The notes beneath the pieces are model-generated. The model saw only the letters and a program-made list of their open reading frames with translations. It made no database searches and was not told the DNA's origin. From Escherichia phage cardinal, in the sequence record PQ567651.1: DNA of 64,000 bases. One strand, given 5' to 3'. A program made the position numbers and the translations under genes. Below, piece after piece: positions 1,063 to 48,934 of this stretch (its first letter is position 1; every line of letters starts with the position of its first letter).

Positions 1063-1617
1063 ATGGGTTTTGATGATATGTTATTATATGAGGAGGCTTG
1101 TGTGAAAGAAGCTATGGCTTTACCAGTTTTATCTATTGATATTACAACAGTAGACACTTTTTCAGATTGTGAAACGTGTGGATCGTATTCAAGTATTGTA
1201 CATGTGGTCTGTGGGGATTTAGGCACTTACGAAGATGGAGATTATGCAAGTTGTTTAGGTGATAATCAAGATGGTGAAGTGGCAAATGTTGCAAACTGGA
1301 TTGCTTCTAAGTTAAAAGAAAGAAATCGTCCGTTCCCTAATCTTCTTACACCAGAAGCTATGCTTAAAGCTGAACAAGAGATGTATGATTATGGTTATAA
1401 AGTAGATTATGACTATAATGATCCTAATTATAAAAAATTGAGTGACAAGTATTGGGAACTAGCTAACGCTTATGATAAATACTACTCTACAGAAAACATT
1501 GTTAAATTGTTTTTAGATTTTGGAGTAGAAATTAATTGGGATTTCGAAGAGGAAGAGCGTTACGACGCATCTTCTTGGGATGATGATTACGAAGAGGATA
1601 TTGAATGCGAAGAGTAA
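1063..1617 (+). CDS. acidic hypothetical protein
   Basis: ORF with GGAGG RBS before ATG at 1063; D/E-rich C-terminus. Confidence 0.5.
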   Translation: MGFDDMLLYEEACVKEAMALPVLSIDITTVDTFSDCETCGSYSSIVHVVCGDLGTYEDGDYASCLGDNQDGEVANVANWIASKLKERNRPFPNLLTPEAMLKAEQEMYDYGYKVDYDYNDPNYKKLSDKYWELANAYDKYYSTENIVKLFLDFGVEINWDFEEEERYDASSWDDDYEEDIECEE

Positions 1618-2417
1618 TTTTTGTTAGTGGCGCAGGACTATCTGTGGATAGCGGTATCCCAGCTTTTAGAACAGATACTTCTTCAGGGGAGGCGTTATGG
1701 TCTTCTTATGATCTTTCTGAGGTTTGTGACATTTTCAACTTCCGTGACGGTTATCAGCAAGAACAAGGTGTTCTTGATGCTATGGGTGGTTTAGATGCGG
1801 AAGGATATAACCTCTACCGTAAAACTCACGACTTTTACAATAAACGTCGCGTGGAATTAGAGAAAGTTGACCCGAATCCAGCACATCTTCAGATTGGAGA
1901 ATGGTTCAAAAAATATGGCCCAGAACGAATTATTAACATTACTACTAACGTGGATGACCTCCTTGAACGAGCAGGAGTAGATAGGGAAGAAGTGCTACAT
2001 GTGCACGGTTTTCTTCCTGAAATTACTTTTCAAAGAAAAGCCGGACAACCTACAATTGTAAAAGATGTTGGTTATCAAGCCATAGATGTAGATGACTACC
2101 ATTATGTAAAACCTAATGTAATTTTCTTTGGGGAAGCTGCTCCACTTTACACGGATATGTATTATATTTTTGATACACTGACGGCTCAAGATTTGGTTGT
2201 AGTAGTAGGATGTTCAAACCAAGTTATCAATTTTAATTGGGAATTATTCCCTGCACTTAATATGGGTACAAAAATGATCGTTGTTAACCCAGGAATTAAT
2301 TACGAAGAAACTCTTCTTTACGAAGATAGAGGAGTCTTTGTTTATCGAGAAAAGGCCGCAGATGCTTTTAGCAATCCTGCTTTCATAAAAATGATAGAAG
2401 ATCATTTGACTAAATAA
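1605..2417 (+). CDS. Sir2-family (sirtuin-like) NAD-binding protein lacking the zinc-ribbon module
   Basis: Motifs FVSGAGLSVDSGIPAFRTD (GAGxS..GIPxFR), ITTNVDDLL, VLHVHG, PNVIFFGE; no CxxC pairs. Confidence 0.7.
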   Translation: MRRVIFVSGAGLSVDSGIPAFRTDTSSGEALWSSYDLSEVCDIFNFRDGYQQEQGVLDAMGGLDAEGYNLYRKTHDFYNKRRVELEKVDPNPAHLQIGEWFKKYGPERIINITTNVDDLLERAGVDREEVLHVHGFLPEITFQRKAGQPTIVKDVGYQAIDVDDYHYVKPNVIFFGEAAPLYTDMYYIFDTLTAQDLVVVVGCSNQVINFNWELFPALNMGTKMIVVNPGINYEETLLYEDRGVFVYREKAADAFSNPAFIKMIEDHLTK

Positions 2418-15198: not shown

Positions 15199-15217
15199 GA
15201 TAATGATTATCATTTGC
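15199..15217. promoter_or_regulatory. Fur-box-like 19-mer
   Basis: GATAATGATTATCATTTGC vs E. coli Fur consensus GATAATGATAATCATTATC (16/19). Confidence 0.45.
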
Positions 15218-24424: not shown

Positions 24425-24484
24425 GGCGGGAAACCATTTCCCGCCCTATGTGATACATCTTATCAGATTAAAAAACGTTGTCAA
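24425..24484 (-). promoter_or_regulatory. promoter + 5' stem-loop cassette
   Basis: TTGACA-N16-TAAGAT then gtatcacatag-GGCGGGAAATGGTTTCCCGCC. Confidence 0.65.
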
Positions 24485-25472: not shown

Positions 25473-25586
25473 ACATACAGAAGAGGAAGCGCCACCCCCA
25501 CGGCGTAAAGGCGGGGCTAACATACCAGGGCACTACTGGTTGGAAGGTTGATCGCTGGTACAACGTATTTACAAAGGAGGTTAGCA

Positions 25587-26180
25587 ATGAAAAAAGTTTT
25601 TGGAGTAGGCATTAACGATAGTGCAAAGCCGATCAAAGGTTGTCGATTCTATGCAACATGGCGCAACATGTTACAACGTTGTTATAGTGAATCATATCAG
25701 GACAAAAGGCCATCTTATAAAGGTTGTAGTGTTTGTGATGAATGGTTGACGTTTAGCACTTTTCGTGCTTGGATGGAACAGCAGGATCACCAGGGAAAAC
25801 AATTAGATAAAGATATAATAACACCGGGTAATAAACTCTATTGTCCTGATCGTTGCGTATTTGTAACGCAAGAAATGAATAGTTTGTTAACAGTTACAAA
25901 GAGTAACAAAGGGGATCATCCTTTGGGTGTTTCATTTTTGAATCATAAACCATTGCCGCGCCCTTATTTAGCAACAATACGTTATAATAACGTAGTGGAA
26001 AGATTAGGGTACTATGTAGATCCTTTATCCGCTCATTTGGCCTGGAATAGGCGCAAACGTGAAATAATCATAGAGATTATTAGTAATGAAACGGATTCAA
26101 GGATCGCCGCTGGCTTGGCTTTACGTGTTGACGCTCTCGATCTGGCTTATGAAAATAAAGCGGAAATAACTTGCTTATGA
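25587..26180 (+). CDS. putative homing-endonuclease-like protein with AP2-type DNA-binding domain
   Basis: N-terminal YATWRNMLQRCY...CDEWLTFSTFRAWM and AP2-like YLATIRYNNVVERLGYYVDPLSAHLAWN; AAAGGAGG RBS. Confidence 0.4.
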   Translation: MKKVFGVGINDSAKPIKGCRFYATWRNMLQRCYSESYQDKRPSYKGCSVCDEWLTFSTFRAWMEQQDHQGKQLDKDIITPGNKLYCPDRCVFVTQEMNSLLTVTKSNKGDHPLGVSFLNHKPLPRPYLATIRYNNVVERLGYYVDPLSAHLAWNRRKREIIIEIISNETDSRIAAGLALRVDALDLAYENKAEITCL

Positions 26181-26184
26181 CGCT

Positions 26185-26217
26185 TGACAAGCGCCCGACA
26201 AGGGCGCATAATCTCTT
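26185..26217 (+). promoter_or_regulatory. sigma70-like promoter with palindrome in spacer
   Basis: TTGACA-agcgcccgacaagggcg-CATAAT; gcgccc...gggcgc inverted repeat. Confidence 0.5.
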
Positions 26218-26435
26218 ACATAGACAGGAACGCCTACCAATGGCGCTAAACTTGGTGATGATAGCCGCAGGGCATCGACAGCTATAATCGCCGGTAGCTC
26301 GTCTAAAATAAATTTGTAAAGAAATGTAAAGATAAAAATAATCGCTTGCTTTTGTTGTTGGTTATGCTATTCTTATTGTATGGCGAGGGGACACGGGAGC
26401 GCGAGACAAACACCGCCCCTGCGCGTTATTTTCTA

Positions 26436-26550
26436 AATGAGAAAATTCTCATTTGCTAATGATTCTCATTCTCTTACTGAGAATGATTATCACTTACATA
26501 ATTAAATGATAATGATTCTCATTTACAAATGAGAATGATTATCATACGCA
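26436..26550. promoter_or_regulatory. cluster of Fur-box-like palindromes
   Basis: aaatgagaaaattctcattt, aatgattctcattctc, gagaatgattatcac, gataatgattctcattta, gagaatgattatcatacg. Confidence 0.45.
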
Positions 26551-26564
26551 TACCTATAAAAACA

Positions 26565-26775
26565 CGAAATTGAACTTTTCATTTTTGATTTTTCTACGGA
26601 AAAAGGCAAAAAAACTTTAAATAAACTGGGGAATTTTTAAAAAATTGAAGTTTTCATTTTCAAAATCTGGATAGAAATACGTACAAAAACTTTAAATAAT
26701 TTTGACCAAACTTGAACTTTTCATTTTCAAAATTTGTACCCAAAAATCTGTAAAAACTTTAAATAATTTTGTACT
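26565..26775. repeat. three ~65-bp imperfect direct repeats
   Basis: units start aaattgaa(c/g)ttttcatttt... and end ...aaaaactttaaataa at about 26568, 26642, 26711. Confidence 0.8.
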
Positions 26776-27082
26776 TTTTATAAAAATGATTTTACTGTTC
26801 TGTTATAAGTAGTAGTTAAGAGATAGTATGCCTTTTAAAGATCAGATACCATAGTCAAACAAACAAATTAAATACTTTATTAACAGAGTACAGAATAATA
26901 TTTACTCTGGATATATTATTCAGAGGGTGGATTTCCGTACATGAAACCCACACCCCTTTTTATAAAAATAAAAATTTTCAAAATATCAGTAAATATCAGA
27001 TTGTGCTTTTAGATAAACAGCAAGGTCTGTATGCCATTTTCCTAAAAGATTTTGTCCTTTCCAACAGTCCTTATTTTCCACA

Positions 27083-27538
27083 TCACGATCCCACATTCCC
27101 ATTTTTGATACCATAAATAGAATCATAAGGGCTTGCCTCTACGAACTCCTTATCTGCGTAAGCGATAAGTTTATTTTTGAGATCTTCATTTTGTGTGTAT
27201 TTAAGATACAAACCACGTTTGACAATCTTCTCCCGTAAAGAAGTCCAGGTATCTTCATCATAATCTTTAACTAATCTGCCTAGACGTTTATAATATGCTT
27301 GTTCTTTTTCTCCTGTATATCTTAGATCTCCGGTTAAAATAGAAGATGCAATATTGTAATCATAAAACAAACATGCTTTTCTCCACATCATATATTGTTC
27401 CACACAAGTAAATTCGACAGAACTTGTGATAGAATTATTATACTTGGGAGCTAAAGGTTCAATAAAAGATGATAGATACCAGTTGCTAAATTCATCTTTT
27501 GCCGAGAAAAAGAACACATACTTGTCAGTAATCCGCAT
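27083..27538 (-). CDS. NADAR (YbiA-like) domain protein
   Basis: YVFFFSAKDEFSNWYLS, FTCVEQYMMWRKACLF, EFVEASPYDSIYGIKNG align with E. coli YbiA motifs. Confidence 0.75.
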   Translation of the reverse strand: MRITDKYVFFFSAKDEFSNWYLSSFIEPLAPKYNNSITSSVEFTCVEQYMMWRKACLFYDYNIASSILTGDLRYTGEKEQAYYKRLGRLVKDYDEDTWTSLREKIVKRGLYLKYTQNEDLKNKLIAYADKEFVEASPYDSIYGIKNGNVGS

Positions 27539-28936
27539 TTACACCTCCTTATTGTATACTAATTTGCCACCATATTGTGTAACAATTTTTTGAAGATTTT
27601 CCAAATCAGAAACACTTACTGTTTCTGTATGACCATCTTTCAACTCTCTTGCCGTTAAAATACCAGTTTTTAATTTTTTCTTTATAGCTCTTTCAGCAGC
27701 CTTACATTGTTTCACTGTGCTAAAATCATATAAACAAATACGCTCCATAGGAAACATATTACAGCTATTTTGACGTTTTAATCGACTATCACTATTTTTA
27801 GCTATACCAAACTTAAGAGCAACTATAATATTATCATCCTTAACAATATTAATATATAACTGCTGCTGACTATGACCAGCACACATAGGACAACCTCGAC
27901 CGTGGCTTAATAAGGCATTAGCCCTCCCTGTCTGTTCCCCATGCACAAGACAAAGATATTTAAACTTACCGTGACTTCTAGACGGTTTACCGATCCAACC
28001 TACCCAGACATACCCTTTCCCTTCTACTTCCTTTTTTACCCTGTAGGTAATCTGATTTTCTGTATAGTGATAACTAGTTGCACAGCGGCAAGGGATACTT
28101 CCTTGTTTTAGGGGCCACCCTTTAGAGTAAAATTTACCATCGCAAACACCTGCTTGAACATATTCATCATGGGAGCAAACAGGACACTCAACCATCCATA
28201 CTGCATCACGCTTGTTACGTTTCCCTGTATTGGTGAAGATAGTGCCTTCCTTAAATTTCCCTGTAGAAAAGAAATCTGCAATATGTTGATCGTCGGACAT
28301 TGTTAGTGCCTTCCTTGTATTCTCATACCTACATAAAGGACAACCATAACCACGTTTAAAATTGTTAATACTTGTAGTATCCCATTTATAACCACAGTGA
28401 CACAACAAATCAAGTTTTGTTTTATGTCCTTTCCATTTTCCAACGTACCCTAACACCTGATACCCCTTCTTCTGTGCTATCTCTTCCAAGATCGGTAATT
28501 CTGTTTCCCATGCTAACGGTTTATTACTTGCACATGCCGGACAACCACGTCCATTCCTAAAATCAATAATGTTTGTGGTGTTCCACTCTCCATGTTTAGG
28601 GCAAATTATGCGAATTTTTGTTCGCACACCTCGCCACTCCTCGGCAAGACCTATAAAAGTAAACCCTCTTTCTTTAGCAATATCAACAAGGGAGATACAT
28701 TCCTTTTCTTCTGTTACTTTTCTATGACCATTGCAATCGGAGCAACATTTACCGCCTTTAGTTTTAAATACATTGATTATGGTACTTTCCCACTCTCCAT
28801 GATCAGAGCAAGATAGCTTAAGCCTAGTCCTGCTACCTTTCCATTCACCAACATAACCCAAGATTTGAATATTGTGATTTTTAGCAAGGGGTATTAATTC
28901 TTCTTTATATTGTTCCCATGATTTTAGTGCTACCAT
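27539..28936 (-). CDS. Cys/His-rich triple-repeat protein with C-terminal GIY-YIG-like (T5orf172-type) domain
   Basis: three modules of form GYVGxWKG..TKL.L.C..HGEW.T..I..F..G.GCP.C; C-terminal LYINIVKDDNIIVALKFGIAKNSDSRLKRQ. Confidence 0.45.
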   Translation of the reverse strand: MVALKSWEQYKEELIPLAKNHNIQILGYVGEWKGSRTRLKLSCSDHGEWESTIINVFKTKGGKCCSDCNGHRKVTEEKECISLVDIAKERGFTFIGLAEEWRGVRTKIRIICPKHGEWNTTNIIDFRNGRGCPACASNKPLAWETELPILEEIAQKKGYQVLGYVGKWKGHKTKLDLLCHCGYKWDTTSINNFKRGYGCPLCRYENTRKALTMSDDQHIADFFSTGKFKEGTIFTNTGKRNKRDAVWMVECPVCSHDEYVQAGVCDGKFYSKGWPLKQGSIPCRCATSYHYTENQITYRVKKEVEGKGYVWVGWIGKPSRSHGKFKYLCLVHGEQTGRANALLSHGRGCPMCAGHSQQQLYINIVKDDNIIVALKFGIAKNSDSRLKRQNSCNMFPMERICLYDFSTVKQCKAAERAIKKKLKTGILTARELKDGHTETVSVSDLENLQKIVTQYGGKLVYNKEV

Positions 28937-28973: not shown

Positions 28974-29003
28974 AAAACCCGCCGAAGCGGGTTTTTATTT
29001 GCT
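28974..29003 (-). terminator. bidirectional hairpin terminator
   Basis: aaaacccgc-cgaa-gcgggtttt with T-runs. Confidence 0.5.
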
Positions 29004-29010
29004 GGCTTAC

Positions 29011-30139
29011 TTAAAACACACTTGCCAAAGTTGCACCATTGGTGATAGTTGGTTCCAGAACAATACGGAAAGAATCTTCTGGATCATCACTAAACACAAC
29101 GATTTTACCGCCTGTAATAAGGTCTGCTTTCATTTTTGTCGCATTCAATGGAATTCGAGCATCTCCTTCATCATCAAAAACCACGTAAGAGCTATTAGCA
29201 AGGGCTTCTTTAGAGTCTGCATCACTTGGAGATGACAAGTACACGTCTAGTGTGCACGAACCACCTAAAAAGATTGCAGGTGTGAAGTTATGCCAACTAG
29301 ATACCCAGCTAACTTTCTGAAGTTTTCCATTAATAACAACGCTGCTGATATCCCATTTATTACCACCACCTAAAGAAACACCCATCATAGAGATGCATTC
29401 TTTAAAGGATAAATCAGGGTAGAAATTAAGTTCTTCTACTATACCTTGGATCACATCAAAGGACAACTCTAAACTTACATCCCAAAGTCTTTGGAAATTA
29501 TCAAAGTGTGCTTTGTTATCCAGGTTTTTATCTAAATAGTCAATCATAGTTTCTAGTGAGATTTTATCATAATTAAAATTATAAAACACACGACTAGGAC
29601 GATTTAAAAAGAATTCAGAGATAAAACCACTGTTTTTAGTCAGAATAAACAGTTTATTACCACTGCCAGTACCATCTAACAAAGTGAGAAGTGCTTCTTG
29701 ATCTTGTTTCTTCTCATACACTTTATCAAACTCGTCAAAAATAATCACTGCTTTGTCGGTGATCTTGCTAATAAGTTCAATGAAATTAGCATCGCTGTAG
29801 GCTTGAGTAACCATAATAGTTGGAATACCTTCTTCTACAAGGTCACGACTAATGAGTTTGGCTAACATAGTTTTACCACTGCCCTTAGTTCCTGTCAGGA
29901 GCAAACCTGTATTTTTACCTTGTGCACTCCGGCGATGGAATGTACGAATAACGTGATTTGCTCGTTTTTCTGTTTCACCATACAGAACATCCGGTACACC
30001 TGTTAGATTACCACGGCTTAAAAAAATAATTGCCAAGGGGATCACGACTAACAGTATAGAATCCAGGTGGAAGATAGTTAGATTCCACGCCCATATCTTT
30101 ATTTACACTTACAATATCACCATAAATCGTGTATTTCAT
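29011..30139 (-). CDS. P-loop ATPase, paralog of 45151-46311, interrupted by a frameshift at a T7 run (~30020-30026)
   Basis: Walker A TGTKGSGKT, Walker B VIIFDEFDK; N-terminal 40 codons (ATG 30139, AAAAGGGG RBS) are in another frame and restore paralog alignment if one T is removed. Confidence 0.5.
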
Positions 30140-37473: not shown

Positions 37474-40248
37474 ATGGCTAAGAAAGAGTTGAGCTTCACT
37501 CCGACAGAAGAGCAAACAGCTATTAAGGAGGCTTTTCCAGATCATCGCTTTTTAACTATCCAAGCTAAATCTGGATCAGGTAAAACGTCAACACTTTATT
37601 TGCTGGCTAACAGTACAGAAGATCGCATTCTTTACTTAGCTTTCAATAAAAGCATGGCAGAAGAAGCACGACGTAAGATGCCACCAAATGTAGAATGCCG
37701 TACATTGCATTCTATTTGCTATCAATTCCTGGATCATCGTTTACGTGCAAAACTGTCACGACCAGAAGGACAGTATGTTAACGTTGCAGGTACAGGTAGC
37801 GAGATAGCAAAGAAATTTAAGATTAATAATCTTATTGATAAACGAGGGAAAACACTTTTAACTCGTGCTATGATTGGTTTAATGATCAAGCAAACCGTAG
37901 GTAAGTTTGAATTTTCGGATGATCCTTTTATCAGCCGTAAACATTTTCCTAGTGTACATCTTGCAGATATTAAAAGAAAAGGTATTAACGAACACAAACT
38001 AATTACAGAAGTAGTTAAGTATGCAAAACAATTGTGGCGAGAGCGCATCGATCCTAACACAGATACTTTGATGACGCATGACACCTATGTAAAATTGTTT
38101 GAATTGTCTGGTGCTGATCTTGGTTATGACATTATTTTTGGGGATGAATTCCAGGATGTTAACCCTGCATTCTTGTCTATTCTGCGAAATGCTAAATCTG
38201 CAAAACAAATTGTGGTAGTTGGCGATGAATTCCAATGTGTGTCGGAAAACACGGTACTTAACACCGAGAATGGTCAGGTTACAATGAAAGACCTGCAAAT
38301 CGGTGATAAGGTAGAGTCTTATTCTAATGGTAAAGTTACATTTAGAAAAGTAACAAATAAGACTTTATCTACACGTACAAAAGGTAGGAATATTATTACT
38401 GCTACAGGTAAAACTTTAGATATGACACATAACCATCGTATTTGGGCTTCATCCTATGTTCTGAAAGATGACCAGATGGTGGTATACCTAATGTGGAGGA
38501 AAGATTTAGGTTTCCGAGTAGGGATCACTAACAAATTCGATGATAAAGAAGGTTTTTCTAAACTGGGGCAACGTACACGTTCTGAAAAAGCACAGAAATT
38601 ATGGGTGTTGGACATTGTTGAAAATCGCGAAGCTGCTATGGAAAAAGAAATGGCATACAGTTTACAATATGGCATTCCTACTTGTGTATTTGAAGCAAGT
38701 TCACGCGGCATTAATCAAGAAAGGATCAATAACATCTTTGAACAATTCGGACAAAATGGTTTTAAACTTTTAGAGGATAAAGATTATCATTTTGCTTATC
38801 CACACTGGCACAGCATCAATTGTGCAGTAGATGAAAGAAAAATGCTAACAGTGACTTTGCGAGCACAAAGTTGTAAAGGAACACAAGTTAGTTTTGAGTG
38901 GACAGAAAGTGAAATGCCGATCTATTCTTCACTGATTAAAGCAGGTGTAAGCGTAAGTGCTGCTAAATTGGAAGGTCGTTACCGTGTACGTAAATATTTC
39001 AATTCTTATCGTGAAGCATTGAGTTTTGCACAAAAGATCCTTGAAATAGTTCCGTTTGCATCTTTAAAAGAATGCATGTCCTCTGTGAACAGTGCCAAAT
39101 ATAACTTAATTCCGGCAGCGGGTTTGTTTAAAGGCATGTCTGTGTTGGTAAAAGATGGTGATACTGTAACGGCAGAAGAGATTGTGGATATTGTAGATAG
39201 TGAGGGTATCTATTATGATATTGAAGTAGAGGATACTGCTAACTTCTTTGGCAATGAAATTCTTAGCCACAACTGCATTTATCAATTTAGAGGTAGCTCT
39301 AATATGATGATTGAAACAGCTAAGTATGGGGCAGAACTTCCATTAACTGCTTGCTTCCGTTTTGGCCCCAAAGTGGCAAACATTGCCAATATGATTTTAA
39401 GCGATAAAGAACCTTTGCGTCATCCTTTGGTTGGTAAAGGCTTTGATACTGTAGTAGGTAGCTACAAATCAGATGTTGTAGACTATACAAAACCTTACAC
39501 TATCATCTTTCGCAAGAATTTAACCTTGCTTATGGAGGCAATGGATCGTATTGCAGATGGGGAAGAAATTATTATTAACGTAGATACCAGGGATTTTATC
39601 TCTATGGTAGATAGTGTTAATGCTCTTCGGAGAGGAGATATTGAGAAAGTAAAACATGAAACTGTATTACCTTACGCAGACTGGGATGAATTTGTTGAGT
39701 GTGCAGAGGCTGATCCAGATGCTAAACGCTTGTTAAACATCGTAGTTTCTGGTAAGGCGAACACCATAGCACATACACTTAGAACGCACAGAAATTCTCC
39801 TACAGCAAAAGTCACACTTACTACAGCACACAAGTCTAAAGGTTTGGAGTGGGATCAGGTTATTGTTGCTAATGATTTTCCTTCCAACTATGATAAAAAG
39901 ACTGGTGAATGGGTAGGACTAGAAGAGGCAGAGCGAAACCTACTGTATGTAGCGCATACCCGTTGTGTTAAATGCTTACAATGGAACACAACCGTACAGG
40001 AGATTATAGATATCAATCGTGTTGCAACAGAGAAAGTACCAACAAGCACCACTTTACCGATCAATGGTATTAAACTTGGTGTATTTGGCGCTGGCACATC
40101 TCGAAAAACTGTAGAAAAATTTGTTGCAGATTCTTTTGATGGTAACTATAATCATGCACAAGCATATGAGAGTTGGTTAGAGGAAGGTGAAGGTGATTTT
40201 TTAGGTGAAATAAATCTTTTACCAGACATAAATAAACTGGTAAACTAA
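37474..40248 (+). CDS. SF1 (UvrD/PcrA-like) DNA helicase containing an intein
   Basis: Walker A AKSGSGKTSTL, motif II FGDEFQD, motif III VVVGDEFQ|CIYQFRG split by 346-aa insert; AAGAGAGG RBS. Confidence 0.8.
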   Translation: MAKKELSFTPTEEQTAIKEAFPDHRFLTIQAKSGSGKTSTLYLLANSTEDRILYLAFNKSMAEEARRKMPPNVECRTLHSICYQFLDHRLRAKLSRPEGQYVNVAGTGSEIAKKFKINNLIDKRGKTLLTRAMIGLMIKQTVGKFEFSDDPFISRKHFPSVHLADIKRKGINEHKLITEVVKYAKQLWRERIDPNTDTLMTHDTYVKLFELSGADLGYDIIFGDEFQDVNPAFLSILRNAKSAKQIVVVGDEFQCVSENTVLNTENGQVTMKDLQIGDKVESYSNGKVTFRKVTNKTLSTRTKGRNIITATGKTLDMTHNHRIWASSYVLKDDQMVVYLMWRKDLGFRVGITNKFDDKEGFSKLGQRTRSEKAQKLWVLDIVENREAAMEKEMAYSLQYGIPTCVFEASSRGINQERINNIFEQFGQNGFKLLEDKDYHFAYPHWHSINCAVDERKMLTVTLRAQSCKGTQVSFEWTESEMPIYSSLIKAGVSVSAAKLEGRYRVRKYFNSYREALSFAQKILEIVPFASLKECMSSVNSAKYNLIPAAGLFKGMSVLVKDGDTVTAEEIVDIVDSEGIYYDIEVEDTANFFGNEILSHNCIYQFRGSSNMMIETAKYGAELPLTACFRFGPKVANIANMILSDKEPLRHPLVGKGFDTVVGSYKSDVVDYTKPYTIIFRKNLTLLMEAMDRIADGEEIIINVDTRDFISMVDSVNALRRGDIEKVKHETVLPYADWDEFVECAEADPDAKRLLNIVVSGKANTIAHTLRTHRNSPTAKVTLTTAHKSKGLEWDQVIVANDFPSNYDKKTGEWVGLEEAERNLLYVAHTRCVKCLQWNTTVQEIIDINRVATEKVPTSTTLPINGIKLGVFGAGTSRKTVEKFVADSFDGNYNHAQAYESWLEEGEGDFLGEINLLPDINKLVN
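38236..39273 (+). mobile_element. intein (346 aa) in helicase motif III
   Basis: N-terminal CVSENTVLNT (block A), TLDMTHNHRIW (block B), C-terminal YYDIEVEDTANFFGNEILSHN then +1 Cys. Confidence 0.75.
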
Positions 40249-46560: not shown

Positions 46561-46716
46561 ATGCTTACAGATGATGAATATAAAGCTATCCAAGAAAAAC
46601 TAACGGAGCTTGAAATTCTTGCTGTCAATATTAAAGATCAATCACATGCTGGAAAGTTACTACATCAAGAGATCAATAAAATTAAGCAGATGATATTCTT
46701 TTGGACGGAGGATTAA
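46561..46716 (+). CDS. hypothetical small protein, 51 aa
   Basis: AGGGGAAGAAA RBS; not in track. Confidence 0.4.
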   Translation: MLTDDEYKAIQEKLTELEILAVNIKDQSHAGKLLHQEINKIKQMIFFWTED

Positions 46717-46718
46717 AA

Positions 46719-47375
46719 ATGACTGTTAAGCATATTTCTTTTGATGTATGGAACACTCTTATTACTGCTAATCCTTTGTATGCAGAAGAGCGCAACAAGG
46801 TAATTGCCGAGTATGCCTCTTGTTCTGAGGCAGAAGCAGCAACTGTATATAAAGAAGTAAAAACTCTCCTGGATTTAAGAGCAGAAAAAGGCATTTGTGG
46901 AACATCTAGAAATGCTTGGGAAACACTTTCTGCTCATTTGAACATTGATCTTGATAAAGTAGATGGGTTAAAAAGAGACTGTTTAGCAATGTTTATAAAA
47001 CATCCTCCAATATTAAACCCTGAACTTTGCAAGAAGTTGGAAGAGCTAAGTTCAACCTATTCTTTGAGTATTAAAAGCAATACCAATTTTGTACCTGGTA
47101 GTTTCTTAGCTGTATATTCTGGCTTGACAAAATTACCATTTGACTTTATGCATTTTTCTGATGAGTTTTGCTTGTGTAAACCAGATCCCAGGTTTTTTAA
47201 ACTCTCTTTTGATGAAATGGTAACGTTTGATCTCGCACCAGAGGAGATCTTACACGTTGGAGATAGTTTGATCTATGATGGAAAAGCTGTTGACATAGGG
47301 ATGAAGTTCTGTCATATTATTAATCCAGAAGACTTGTTGGCTAAACTTAAAAAAGAGGAACTTATTAATGCGTAA
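46719..47375 (+). CDS. HAD-superfamily hydrolase-like protein (variant motif I)
   Basis: ISFDVWNTLI (motif I-like, second Asp replaced) and HVGDSLIYDGKA (motif IV GDxxxD). Confidence 0.5.
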   Translation: MTVKHISFDVWNTLITANPLYAEERNKVIAEYASCSEAEAATVYKEVKTLLDLRAEKGICGTSRNAWETLSAHLNIDLDKVDGLKRDCLAMFIKHPPILNPELCKKLEELSSTYSLSIKSNTNFVPGSFLAVYSGLTKLPFDFMHFSDEFCLCKPDPRFFKLSFDEMVTFDLAPEEILHVGDSLIYDGKAVDIGMKFCHIINPEDLLAKLKKEELINA

Positions 47376-48225
47376 TCAAATTCAACATTTTGCTAATATT
47401 TTTACTAACCTGAAGGAAGCAAAATTTAACATTGCAGATTATTCCAAGCTAAAGTTTGGTAGTAACCAGGCAGCAAAAAGAATGGGGCGCATTCTGGCTG
47501 AAAGTTTCTTTTCCAAGTATGAAGAACGACTGGTAAATGAAAGTTTTGTTGTTATTCCATCTCCATATAACTATGTGAAAAATGCAGCTACAGTGTTATC
47601 TGAACATTTTGTAGATCACCTCAACTACCTAATCTCTATCAAAGGAGGTAAAGCAGTGGAGTGGGATATCGTTCATCGTAAAGTGAGCTATATCAATGAT
47701 TATGGATTTCTTAGCAAAGAAGATCGTAAGGCTTTGATCGATGGTGACACTTTCTCTATCAATCGTGATTTCTGGGGTAATAAAACTCTGATTTTCATTG
47801 ATGATGTTAATATTACAGGAACGCACGAAGAAAAACTTATTGAAATTTTAGACAAAGAAGGTGTTGAAAACGATACGTTTTTCCTGTACTTTGCAAAGTA
47901 TGAAGGTACAGAAGCCAACACCGAAGCTGCACTTAACTTCAACTATATCAATAACCTGGCAGCTTTTATTAAAATGATTAAGCAAGAAACTGATGCTAAA
48001 TGTTTGGTTCGTCCTATTAAGTATCTAATGAGTCAAAGCGAAGTTGATTTTAAAATTGCACTTTCACAGCTTCCTTTGTATTATGTAGAACAACTGTTCT
48101 TTGGTTGCCTTGCAGAAGGCTACAATAACATTGAAAAATATAAAGAGAACTTTGATTTCCTGCGTCAATTTTTTGAAAGCAACATTATCAACAAATCTAA
48201 TGTTAAAGGGGATTATTATGTCTAA
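47368..48225 (+). CDS. type I phosphoribosyltransferase (PRTase)-like protein
   Basis: PRPP-binding signature TLIFIDDVNITGTHEE. Confidence 0.6.
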   Translation: MRNQIQHFANIFTNLKEAKFNIADYSKLKFGSNQAAKRMGRILAESFFSKYEERLVNESFVVIPSPYNYVKNAATVLSEHFVDHLNYLISIKGGKAVEWDIVHRKVSYINDYGFLSKEDRKALIDGDTFSINRDFWGNKTLIFIDDVNITGTHEEKLIEILDKEGVENDTFFLYFAKYEGTEANTEAALNFNYINNLAAFIKMIKQETDAKCLVRPIKYLMSQSEVDFKIALSQLPLYYVEQLFFGCLAEGYNNIEKYKENFDFLRQFFESNIINKSNVKGDYYV

Positions 48226-48934
48226 TAAAGTAATGACTTTCGGAGATCCTATCACCAATATTACAGAAAAAGATTTTGGGCGTGTAGCAACAGATAAAGA
48301 TGGTGTCTTAAGAATTCGTGTACAAGGTATTACAGCACAGGATGAATATGCTGTGTATGTTTCAGGTCTTAACTATATTGATGATCGCATTACACAAAAC
48401 TTTGCACTGATCGGTGGTGTAGAGAAAATGTATTGGGAAGATGAAATTGTAACAAGTTATCCGGCAGGTATCATTGAGGTATACGGTGATCTTTTAGCAG
48501 CAGCCGAGAGAGGCGATATAGACGCTATAGCACACTGCTGTAACTGTTTTTGCACTATGGGTAGTGGTATTGCACCAAAAATTAAAAGCAAGTGGCCTGG
48601 TGCGTTTAAAGCAGATTGTGCCACTAAACGTGGTGATTATAAAAAATTAGGTACGTTTACCAAATATACAGAAAACAATTTGACAATTTATAATTTATAT
48701 GGACAATATGGTTATAGTCGTCGTGAGGAAGGTAAGCGTGACCTGAATTATGAAGCTATCTACAATGCGTTAGATAGTATGGGAGACGATGTTGTATCTT
48801 CAGGCGGTAAAGTTGTAGGTTTACCGATGCTGGGTTGTGGTTTGGCTGGAGGGTCTTGGAATATTGTAAAACTTATGATCGAAGAAACTCTAGTAAACAA
48901 AGGTTTAAATGTAATTGTTTACAAACTGAAATAA
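48218..48934 (+). CDS. macro-domain-like protein (tentative)
   Basis: IAHCCNCFCTMGSGIAPKI and GLPMLGCGLAGGSW resemble macro-domain glycine-rich motifs; AAAGGGG RBS. Confidence 0.4.
   Translation: MSNKVMTFGDPITNITEKDFGRVATDKDGVLRIRVQGITAQDEYAVYVSGLNYIDDRITQNFALIGGVEKMYWEDEIVTSYPAGIIEVYGDLLAAAERGDIDAIAHCCNCFCTMGSGIAPKIKSKWPGAFKADCATKRGDYKKLGTFTKYTENNLTIYNLYGQYGYSRREEGKRDLNYEAIYNALDSMGDDVVSSGGKVVGLPMLGCGLAGGSWNIVKLMIEETLVNKGLNVIVYKLK

Follow-up and report, generated by a model that had tools for sequence, protein, structure and literature searches.

A NADAR gene of the adfN type and a CapR/T5orf172 homing-endonuclease-type gene as abutting, probably unrelated neighbours in a phi92-like Escherichia coli phage

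Two genes lie end to end on the minus strand of a 64,000-nucleotide stretch of DNA from Escherichia phage cardinal (record PQ567651.1), referred to here in its entirety as the window. One encodes a protein of the NADAR family, and the other, directly upstream, encodes a 465-aa protein with Cys/His repeats and a nuclease-like C-terminus. An initial annotation, made from the letters alone, had proposed that the two are co-transcribed and act together as a counter-defence pair. The locus thus raises the question of whether its two genes serve a common function or are neighbors for another reason. In this study, we examine the extent and likely activity of the NADAR gene, the family and evolution of the 465-aa gene, and the arrangement of both in related and unrelated phages.

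Layout and expression of the locus

By nucleotide comparison, the window belongs to a phi92-like E. coli myovirus of the genus Justusliebigvirus. About 50 such myoviruses, including Bas60 (PaulScherrer) and phi92, match the region at 92-94% identity over 3 kb. The features of the locus are as follows.

26986..27538, minus strand: full NADAR (adfN-type) gene, split by a +1 frameshift into a 5' part (the 151-aa ORF) and a 3' part (the 46-aa ORF)
27083-27538, minus strand: NADAR ORF as assembled, 151 aa
26986-27126, minus strand: 46-aa ORF, the 3' part of the NADAR gene, in another frame
27102..27106: homopolymer with the extra base that breaks the NADAR frame (T5 on the plus strand, A5 on the coding strand)
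27550-27544, minus strand: NADAR Shine-Dalgarno sequence AAGGAGG, read directly, inside the last codons of the 465-aa gene
27539-28936, minus strand: 465-aa ORF, 465 aa
27539..27865, minus strand: T5orf172 / GIY-YIG-fold nuclease domain, C-terminal, aa 358-465 plus stop
27866..28312, minus strand: CapR-type zinc modules 4 and 5, aa 209-357, placed by Pfam CapR, Cys/His positions and conserved columns
28313..28936, minus strand: CapR-type zinc modules 1 to 3, canonical and in tandem, aa 1-208, of about 68 aa apiece
28974..28995, minus strand: intrinsic-terminator-like hairpin AAAACCCGC-TTCG-GCGGGTTTT, after the ATPase stop codon and ahead of the 465-aa gene
29011..30139, minus strand: AAA-ATPase gene (Pfam AAA), upstream context, frameshifted in the assembly by a +1 in an A7 run at ~30020-30026

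The two abutting, same-strand ORFs described initially are present at 27083-27538(-) and 27539-28936(-). The TAA stop codon of the 465-aa gene (27541-27539) directly abuts the NADAR ATG (27538), leaving zero spacing, and the phi92 record annotates a ribosome-binding site equivalent to the NADAR AAGGAGG. Given this zero-base spacing and the embedded ribosome-binding site, translation of NADAR could depend on the upstream gene. Co-transcription of the 465-aa gene and NADAR, as first proposed, is plausible in view of the shared strand, the zero spacer and the absence of a terminator between them. The terminator-like hairpin at 28974-28995 lies just upstream of the 465-aa gene, and no sigma-70-like promoter was found between this hairpin and the start of that gene. 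No tRNA was found in the window and no Rfam family in the region of the two genes, and the ORF-free stretch at 26180-26986 is therefore not a known RNA gene.

Extent and activity of the NADAR gene

The assignment of the shorter ORF to the YbiA-family NADAR proteins was confirmed by profile search, in which the 151-aa ORF matched Pfam NADAR (PF08719) at 9.2e-30, with 104.5 bits against a cutoff of 35.1. The match covers only positions 9-132 of the 163-position profile. The orthologue in Bas60, bas60_0111, is 183 aa long, and alignment places one extra base in the window (A5 versus A4 on the coding strand). The last 38 NADAR codons run on in another frame as the 46-aa ORF at 26986-27126, which encodes the missing NADAR C-terminus (…MGMWDRDVENKDCWKGQNLLGKW…) and with it, out of frame, the conserved C-terminal helix (GxNxLG) of the NADAR domain. 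Consistently, the two ORFs cover consecutive parts of phrog_1017, positions 2-130 for the 151-aa ORF and 131-156 for the 46-aa ORF. Removal of one base yields an intact 552-nt NADAR ORF with the helix restored. Over 182 aa the repaired protein matches the NADAR of phage JLBYU50 at every residue (100% identity), and it is ~98% identical to AdfN^Bas60; the gene is ~97% identical to that of Bas60 at the nucleotide level. The window NADAR and bas60_0111 share one 90%-identity protein cluster and occupy the same locus. Strong purifying selection acts on the repaired gene (dN/dS 0.04-0.13; dS 0.07-0.17). Judged by these alignments, the true NADAR gene spans 26986-27538 and encodes 183 aa. The ORF that was first described, though correct as to family, is only the 5' part of this gene, the frameshift having been missed. 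The only PADLOC match for NADAR was to a candidate model, PDC-M42C.

The active site was located through PDB 8BAU, a NADAR structure from Phytophthora, which aligns to the window NADAR at E=1e-12. Using the P. nicotianae residues identified by Schuller et al. 2023, E43, K50, R79, Y84, W89, R93, E125 and D130 were found to correspond to E47, K54, R88, Y93, W98, R102, E134 and D139 of the window protein, respectively. The active-site pair of Glu and Lys is thus conserved (E47 and K54), as is the acidic residue of the last strand (E134), and all eight mapped residues lie upstream of the frameshift. The last-strand position is occupied by His in T4-type phage NADARs and by Asp in DarT1-linked antitoxins, whereas the window NADAR has Glu (E134) there, which by alignment puts it in the Glu (YbiA-type) class and not in the Asp (DarG1) or His (T4) class.

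Whether the frameshift belongs to the phage or to the assembly bears on whether this enzyme is made at all. The extra base in 27102-27106 is an insertion relative to Bas60, phi92, VEcB and J-01, and it was found in none of 55 close relatives, in which a 611-nt query matched over only 610 nt (609 nt in muut). Within the 108-member NADAR cluster, the members listed are 183 aa long except for one 74-aa fragment and the present 151-aa form, which is on record from a single contig only. This Logan contig, from run SRR33749226, is the record of the exact proteins of the locus, and it has the A5 run in common with the window. The window extends beyond position 24426, where the contig ends, and may derive from a longer assembly, but the two sequences may not be independent of each other.

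To place the NADAR break among the other genes, every annotated Bas60 gene was mapped onto the window. The 128 CDSs that map full-length include eight with a broken frame in the window; in six of these eight the break falls within a homopolymer at least 4 bases long. One of the genes affected is the neighboring ATPase, whose +1 in the A7 run at ~30020-30026 is an indel relative to four relatives. Once repaired, the ATPase is 375 aa long with a dN of 0.000 against four relatives (dS 0.06-0.09), and a broken ATPase is therefore implausible in a viable phage. Because 8/128 conserved genes are broken alike and 0/55 relatives share the extra base, we judge the NADAR frameshift to be most probably a homopolymer error of sequencing or assembly. 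A complete NADAR enzyme of 183 aa is therefore the likeliest product in the phage itself. Nor is there support for a programmed frameshift or for slippage of transcription at the A5 run, as the relatives use one frame with A4.

The 38 codons past the break show no decay, the change is common to no relative, and indels of the same kind, mostly in homopolymers, have struck other conserved genes, including an ATPase with dN=0. These observations make it unlikely that NADAR is truly inactivated in the phage, whether by recent decay to a pseudogene or by loss of the C-terminal helix from a shortened enzyme, even though several points would accord with such inactivation. The extra base occurs in a read-derived contig as well as in the window, so a real NADAR mutation is possible; adfN is dispensable on hosts without DarTG1, as judged from T4 data; and the position of the ADPr-contacting residues mapped from the P. 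nicotianae structure, all upstream of the break, makes a truncated product conceivable.

With the frameshift read as an artefact, the window gene can be compared directly with a characterised protein. AdfN^Bas60 is an anti-DarT factor NADAR from Bas60/61/62, described by Johannesman, Carlson & LeRoux (preprint 2024, Nat Commun 2025; PMC11825919). Its expression by itself is enough to neutralise the toxicity of DarT1 in E. coli and to restore plaquing of three DarTG1-sensitive phages, RB69, T5 and Bas25, on DarTG1 hosts (PMC11825919). It does not counter DarTG2, as T5 was not rescued, and its authors concluded that it works without an additional phage factor (PMC11825919). The window gene lies at the same locus as AdfN^Bas60 (bas60_0111 of phage PaulScherrer / Phi92_gp223) and, like it, is an orthologous, stand-alone NADAR with a last-strand Glu; the two differ only by the single additional base, a probable artefact, that interrupts the reading frame in the window. 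At ~98% identity to AdfN^Bas60, the window NADAR is predicted to share its anti-DarT1 activity. The gene at 26986-27538(-) would then be an AdfN^Bas60 orthologue, a stand-alone NADAR ADP-ribosylglycohydrolase that strips ADP-ribose from DNA guanine bases and thereby reverses the DarT1 modification of DarTG1 systems. The suggestion that NADAR serves in counter-defence was therefore right and has been published for the orthologue, so that this function is already known.

Two other groups of NADAR proteins belong to the same superfamily and share its chemistry, guanine-ADP-ribose hydrolysis, namely AdfN^T4 (gp30.3) and the DarG1-type NADAR antitoxins (BC4488 family). AdfN^T4 is active only within a T-even phage infection context, a limit from which AdfN^Bas60 is free. 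The window NADAR does not resemble a DarG1-type antitoxin, as no DarT gene adjoins it (its neighbors are the 465-aa gene and an intergenic region) and its last-strand residue is Glu, not Asp.

Domains, family and evolution of the 465-aa gene

The 465-aa protein was initially described as having three repeats and a T5orf172-like C-terminus. The repeats and the C-terminal domain were both recovered, but the number of modules is five, not three. Pfam CapR (PF21817) matches the protein in five stretches (8.6e-50; 167.2 bits against a cutoff of 24.2), and the modules are ordered with three canonical units at the N-terminus, followed by a divergent unit (pattern CxxC...CxC) and a further canonical unit that precedes the nuclease domain. 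The Cys/His positions give four ligands per unit. In units 1-3 the ligand pairs are 43/46 and 65/68, 112/115 and 132/135, and 179 (with 180/181) and 199/202; unit 4 has C251, C254, C283 and C285, and unit 5, with the pattern CxxH...CxxC, has C329, H332, C349 and C352. The three N-terminal units are only 29-38% identical to each other, and the duplications are therefore old. CapR-type modules bind DNA as zinc fingers and were first recognised in CapR, a Vibrio satellite repressor, and in the ICP1 homing endonucleases with a T5orf172 domain (PMC10448857, PMC8096241).

The C-terminal domain matches Pfam T5orf172 above threshold (26.3 bits against a cutoff of 20) and has the GIY-YIG fold. The whole protein falls into phrog_681, 'endonuclease', at 1.2e-95; PADLOC gave no match for it. 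Across 75 homologues reaching down to 24% identity, seven residues (Y361, K375, G377, R385, E415, D434 and E438) show at least 90% conservation, if not invariance; among them Y361 never varies, and R385 and E438 reach at least 90%. By analogy with the family consensus, Y361, R385 and E438 are predicted to be the catalytic Tyr, Arg and Glu. The conservation of the nuclease domain fits a domain that is still in use.

Members of this family are widespread in phages. A tblastn search located the family at 1003 places across 501 phage records; a genome often has several, and ICP1, Phapecoctavirus and others have 3-6 each. The copies in ICP1, 32-33% identical to the window protein (tblastn), are annotated as putative homing endonucleases. 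On these grounds the 465-aa gene looks like a free-standing homing-endonuclease-type gene of the CapR/T5orf172 family, as found in ICP1 and other phages. The closest described counterparts are gp174, gp165 and other such genes of ICP1 and of other phages (Netter 2021, Barth 2023), which have the same N-terminal CapR repeats and C-terminal T5orf172 domain and likewise gain or lose whole repeats in frame between alleles. The present gene differs from them in having five modules (about 2-5 units among its alleles), in being single-copy in the window, and in occupying one fixed locus in the genus. The T4 Seg proteins and I-TevI, GIY-YIG homing endonucleases of the free-standing and intron-encoded kinds, also have a GIY-YIG-fold catalytic domain with a modular DNA-binding region, and are placed between conserved genes.

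The alleles at this locus differ chiefly in their CapR arrays. In close relatives the protein is about 465, 397, 329 or 263 aa long, and the segments missing from the shorter forms correspond precisely to aa 43-111 (~397 aa), aa 1-136 (~329 aa) and aa 1-202 (~263 aa), that is, to whole CapR units. A change by whole repeats has also been reported for ICP1 gp174 (Barth et al. 2023; PMC10448857). The 465-aa gene is less constrained than its neighbors, with a dN/dS of 0.4-0.6 as against 0.04-0.13 for NADAR, and more diverged, with a dS of 0.16-0.64 as against 0.06-0.17; its ORF is nonetheless intact in all alleles examined. A mechanism can be proposed from family membership. The five CapR-type zinc-finger modules would recognise an extended stretch of DNA, close to which the C-terminal GIY-YIG-fold domain would make a nick or a cut. 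During mixed infection, repair from the gene-carrying genome would copy the 465-aa gene and flanking markers across. Recombination between repeats would add or remove whole CapR units and so reshape the DNA-binding array.

The search for an allele without the gene bears on whether such homing is still going on. All 55 close relatives align through the junction of the 465-aa gene with NADAR, none carrying an allele that lacks the former, and tblastn found no paralogue of the gene in the 64-kb window. With the gene present in 55/55 relatives and no second copy in the window, it could be fixed and domesticated rather than mobile today. The absence of an empty site lowers the case for a gene that is actively homing now, not its assignment to the family.

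Two other roles for the protein can be considered. It might be a domesticated former homing endonuclease, now mainly a sequence-specific DNA-binding regulator that perhaps adjusts expression near the locus, much as PLE CapR represses the ICP1 capsid operon or I-TevI represses itself. All genomes of the genus carry the gene at a single locus, without any empty site, and the ORF is intact in each allele examined, which would suit such a regulator; CapR-domain repressors provide precedents (PMC8096241, PMC10448857). We nevertheless give domestication only a slim chance, because the retention of the nuclease residues Y361, R385 and E438 across 75 homologues argues that the catalytic domain is still used, while the dN/dS of 0.4-0.6 and the changes in unit number suggest a specificity that is shifting rather than fixed, and no binding site for the protein was found.

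Alternatively, the protein might be a weapon, an Odn-like nuclease directed at satellites or co-infecting related phages instead of a homing enzyme. In ICP1, the T5orf172 nuclease Odn has been turned against PLE, coliphage T5orf172/RepA_N fusions have been proposed to target satellites (PMC10448857), and the DNA-binding array of the 465-aa protein does diversify fast. Its modules are, however, generic CapR units not borrowed from a satellite replication protein, no homology to a target was found, and PADLOC offered nothing for the protein. A role as a weapon is accordingly quite doubtful, and we retain the reading as a homing-endonuclease-type gene.

The adjacency of the two genes and its meaning

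If the two genes worked as a pair, their association would be expected to matter beyond close relatives. NADAR homologues were found in 716 phage records, and their surroundings differ. In the Phapecoctavirus-like phages phAPEC8 and PsgM04F, the order is the ATPase, a homologue of the 465-aa gene (54% identical), two small genes and then NADAR. Neither a nuclease nor an ATPase adjoins NADAR in Klebsiella phage FBKp34, no nuclease adjoins it in Staphylococcus phage K, and its neighbor in Salmonella phage KE22 is an unrelated HNH gene. What persists across genera is thus the juxtaposition of the ATPase and the homing-endonuclease-type gene, not that of the latter and NADAR, whose direct adjacency is confined to the genus.

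The initial annotation proposed the NADAR and 465-aa proteins as a counter-defence pair; the DNA-binding nuclease would then, for example, recruit or assist NADAR on ADP-ribosylated DNA. Such a pair could account for the shared strand, the zero spacing, the NADAR ribosome-binding site inside the upstream gene, the lack of a terminator between the genes and the retention of the arrangement in 55/55 close relatives. That retention, however, reflects close kinship (92-98% nucleotide identity) and not independent retention; outside the genus the adjacency is gone, the family of the 465-aa protein occurs in hundreds of phages in unrelated contexts, and the two genes evolve at very different rates. 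Because NADAR contexts differ across genera and AdfN^Bas60 has been published to suffice on its own (PMC11825919), we regard the pair as unsupported and its existence as very improbable indeed. The membership of the 465-aa gene in a homing-endonuclease family, the restriction of the adjacency to the genus and the unlike dN/dS regimes of the two genes all weigh against it.

The locus is best described, with a probability of about 0.8, as two unrelated elements side by side: an adfN-type NADAR gene and a CapR/T5orf172 homing-endonuclease-type gene. Their adjacency and probable co-transcription would reflect the lodging of a selfish gene downstream of a conserved ATPase rather than a shared function.

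A looser connection can be imagined, in which the homing-endonuclease-type gene acts as a drive for adfN, cutting and repair co-converting the flanking NADAR and ATPase alleles in mixed phi92-like infections. If true, a selfish gene would spread DarTG1 resistance through the phage population, and shuffling of CapR units would keep retargeting it. Dragging of NADAR by its neighbor was sought as a lower divergence of the flank, and no signal was found (NADAR dS 0.07-0.17 versus ATPase 0.06-0.09). In the literature searched, AdfN/NADAR was nowhere connected with homing endonucleases, and no paper treated the 465-aa gene in Justusliebigvirus. We consider such a drive improbable.

Other genes related to NAD or ADP-ribose occur elsewhere in the phage. 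The Sir2-like and macro-like genes named in the initial annotation are both present, 20-25 kb from NADAR. The Sir2 gene lies at 1605-2417(+) (Pfam, 3.7e-20), and a macro domain is found in 48101-48934(+) (Pfam, 2.4e-07; 31.1 bits against a cutoff of 22). The macro-domain gene adjoins a ComF-like phosphoribosyltransferase and a HAD hydrolase. A macro domain was also sought beside Sir2, in the ORF at 1048-1617, and in 30 other ORFs, with no match. The several genes of this kind are scattered over 47 kb.

Both parts of the locus are thus already known, one as a characterised anti-DarTG1 NADAR and the other as a member of a described homing-endonuclease family, and the significance of the finding lies mainly in annotation, with little beyond. 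The name adfN (Bas60 type) can replace 'GTP cyclohydrolase II', 'N-glycosidase' and 'hypothetical protein' in many phi92-like records, and for the 465-aa gene a suitable label is CapR/T5orf172 homing-endonuclease-type gene. The assembly carries homopolymer indels, and truncated ORFs in it should not be taken as biology until the reads are checked. For the CapR/T5orf172 family, the copy-number series at one locus (~465, 397, 329 and 263 aa) provides a natural example of possible specificity change, one that extends, rather than changes, what ICP1 showed.

Assembly and database records

The Logan contig SRR33749226_0, which is the only contig on record to carry these exact proteins, ends at window position 24426. 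Because the window runs on past this point through 1-24425, with its synteny with Bas60 (BASEL phage PaulScherrer) continuing, its source may be a longer assembly of this phage. Compared with Bas60, the window assembly contains numerous single-base indels. These leave 8 of the 128 conserved genes frameshifted, six of them at homopolymers. One such indel, in the AAA-ATPase gene, was repaired, and the resulting protein was identical to those of four relatives. Any truncated ORF in the window should be regarded with suspicion.

Indel sites identified by comparison with Bas60
~30020-30026, minus strand, run within the AAA-ATPase gene (29011-30139)
~33941, 55045, 49198, 15423, 11262 and 6026, further indel sites

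Four records of about 146 kb each, labelled "Campylobacter phage" A150, A145, C3 and A110a (GenBank MG065639, MG065645, MG065656 and MG065689), share 97% identity with the NADAR region of the window. All four resemble Justusliebigvirus genomes, and each is probably either a mislabelled entry or a contaminant. In relatives, the NADAR orthologue is variously labelled "GTP cyclohydrolase II", "N-glycosidase", "hypothetical protein" and, in the Eryne record, "DNA methyltransferase", and the published name adfN is still absent.

Insertions near the NADAR gene and in nrdD

A 727-bp segment (25561-26286) is missing from Bas60 and from the relatives phi92, VEcB and J-01, and its sole full-length match is in Raoultella phage Ro1 (87.6%). 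The segment is a second insertion of the mobile-nuclease type, about 0.8 kb from the NADAR gene. Its HNH-endonuclease-like ORF matched phrog_953 (4e-82) over the C-terminal half of the profile only, and had no match in Pfam. Elsewhere, the anaerobic ribonucleotide reductase gene nrdD is split by a group I intron; the inserted sequence, about 286 nt long, contains no ORF, and nrdD of Bas60 is uninterrupted.

Features of the two insertions
25548-26180, HNH-endonuclease-like ORF
26184-26212, near-consensus sigma-70 promoter-like site, also within the 727-bp segment
43396-43727, plus strand, group I intron (Rfam RF00028, 72.3 bits)

Repeats downstream of the NADAR gene and a gene cluster elsewhere

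With up to three mismatches to GATAATGATAATCATTATC allowed, five Fur-box-like palindromes were found, as against 0.07 expected by chance, and two of the five fall downstream of the NADAR gene, in a region free of ORFs. These palindromes may confer iron-responsive control on a phage promoter. The same intergenic region holds direct repeats that could be phage promoters or iterons; some relatives' records annotate a repeat_region there.

Repeats and gene cluster
26455-26526, 15199-15217 and 38776-38794, Fur-box-like matches to GATAATGATAATCATTATC
~26570-26790, three direct repeats of ~60 nt each (TTGAACTTTTCATTTT…AAAAACTTTAAATAA)
46701-48934, plus strand, clustered genes for a HAD-like hydrolase, a ComF-like phosphoribosyltransferase (PRTase_3, 1.2e-41) and a macro-domain protein

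This last cluster may constitute an ADP-ribose or nucleotide-handling module apart from the NADAR gene.
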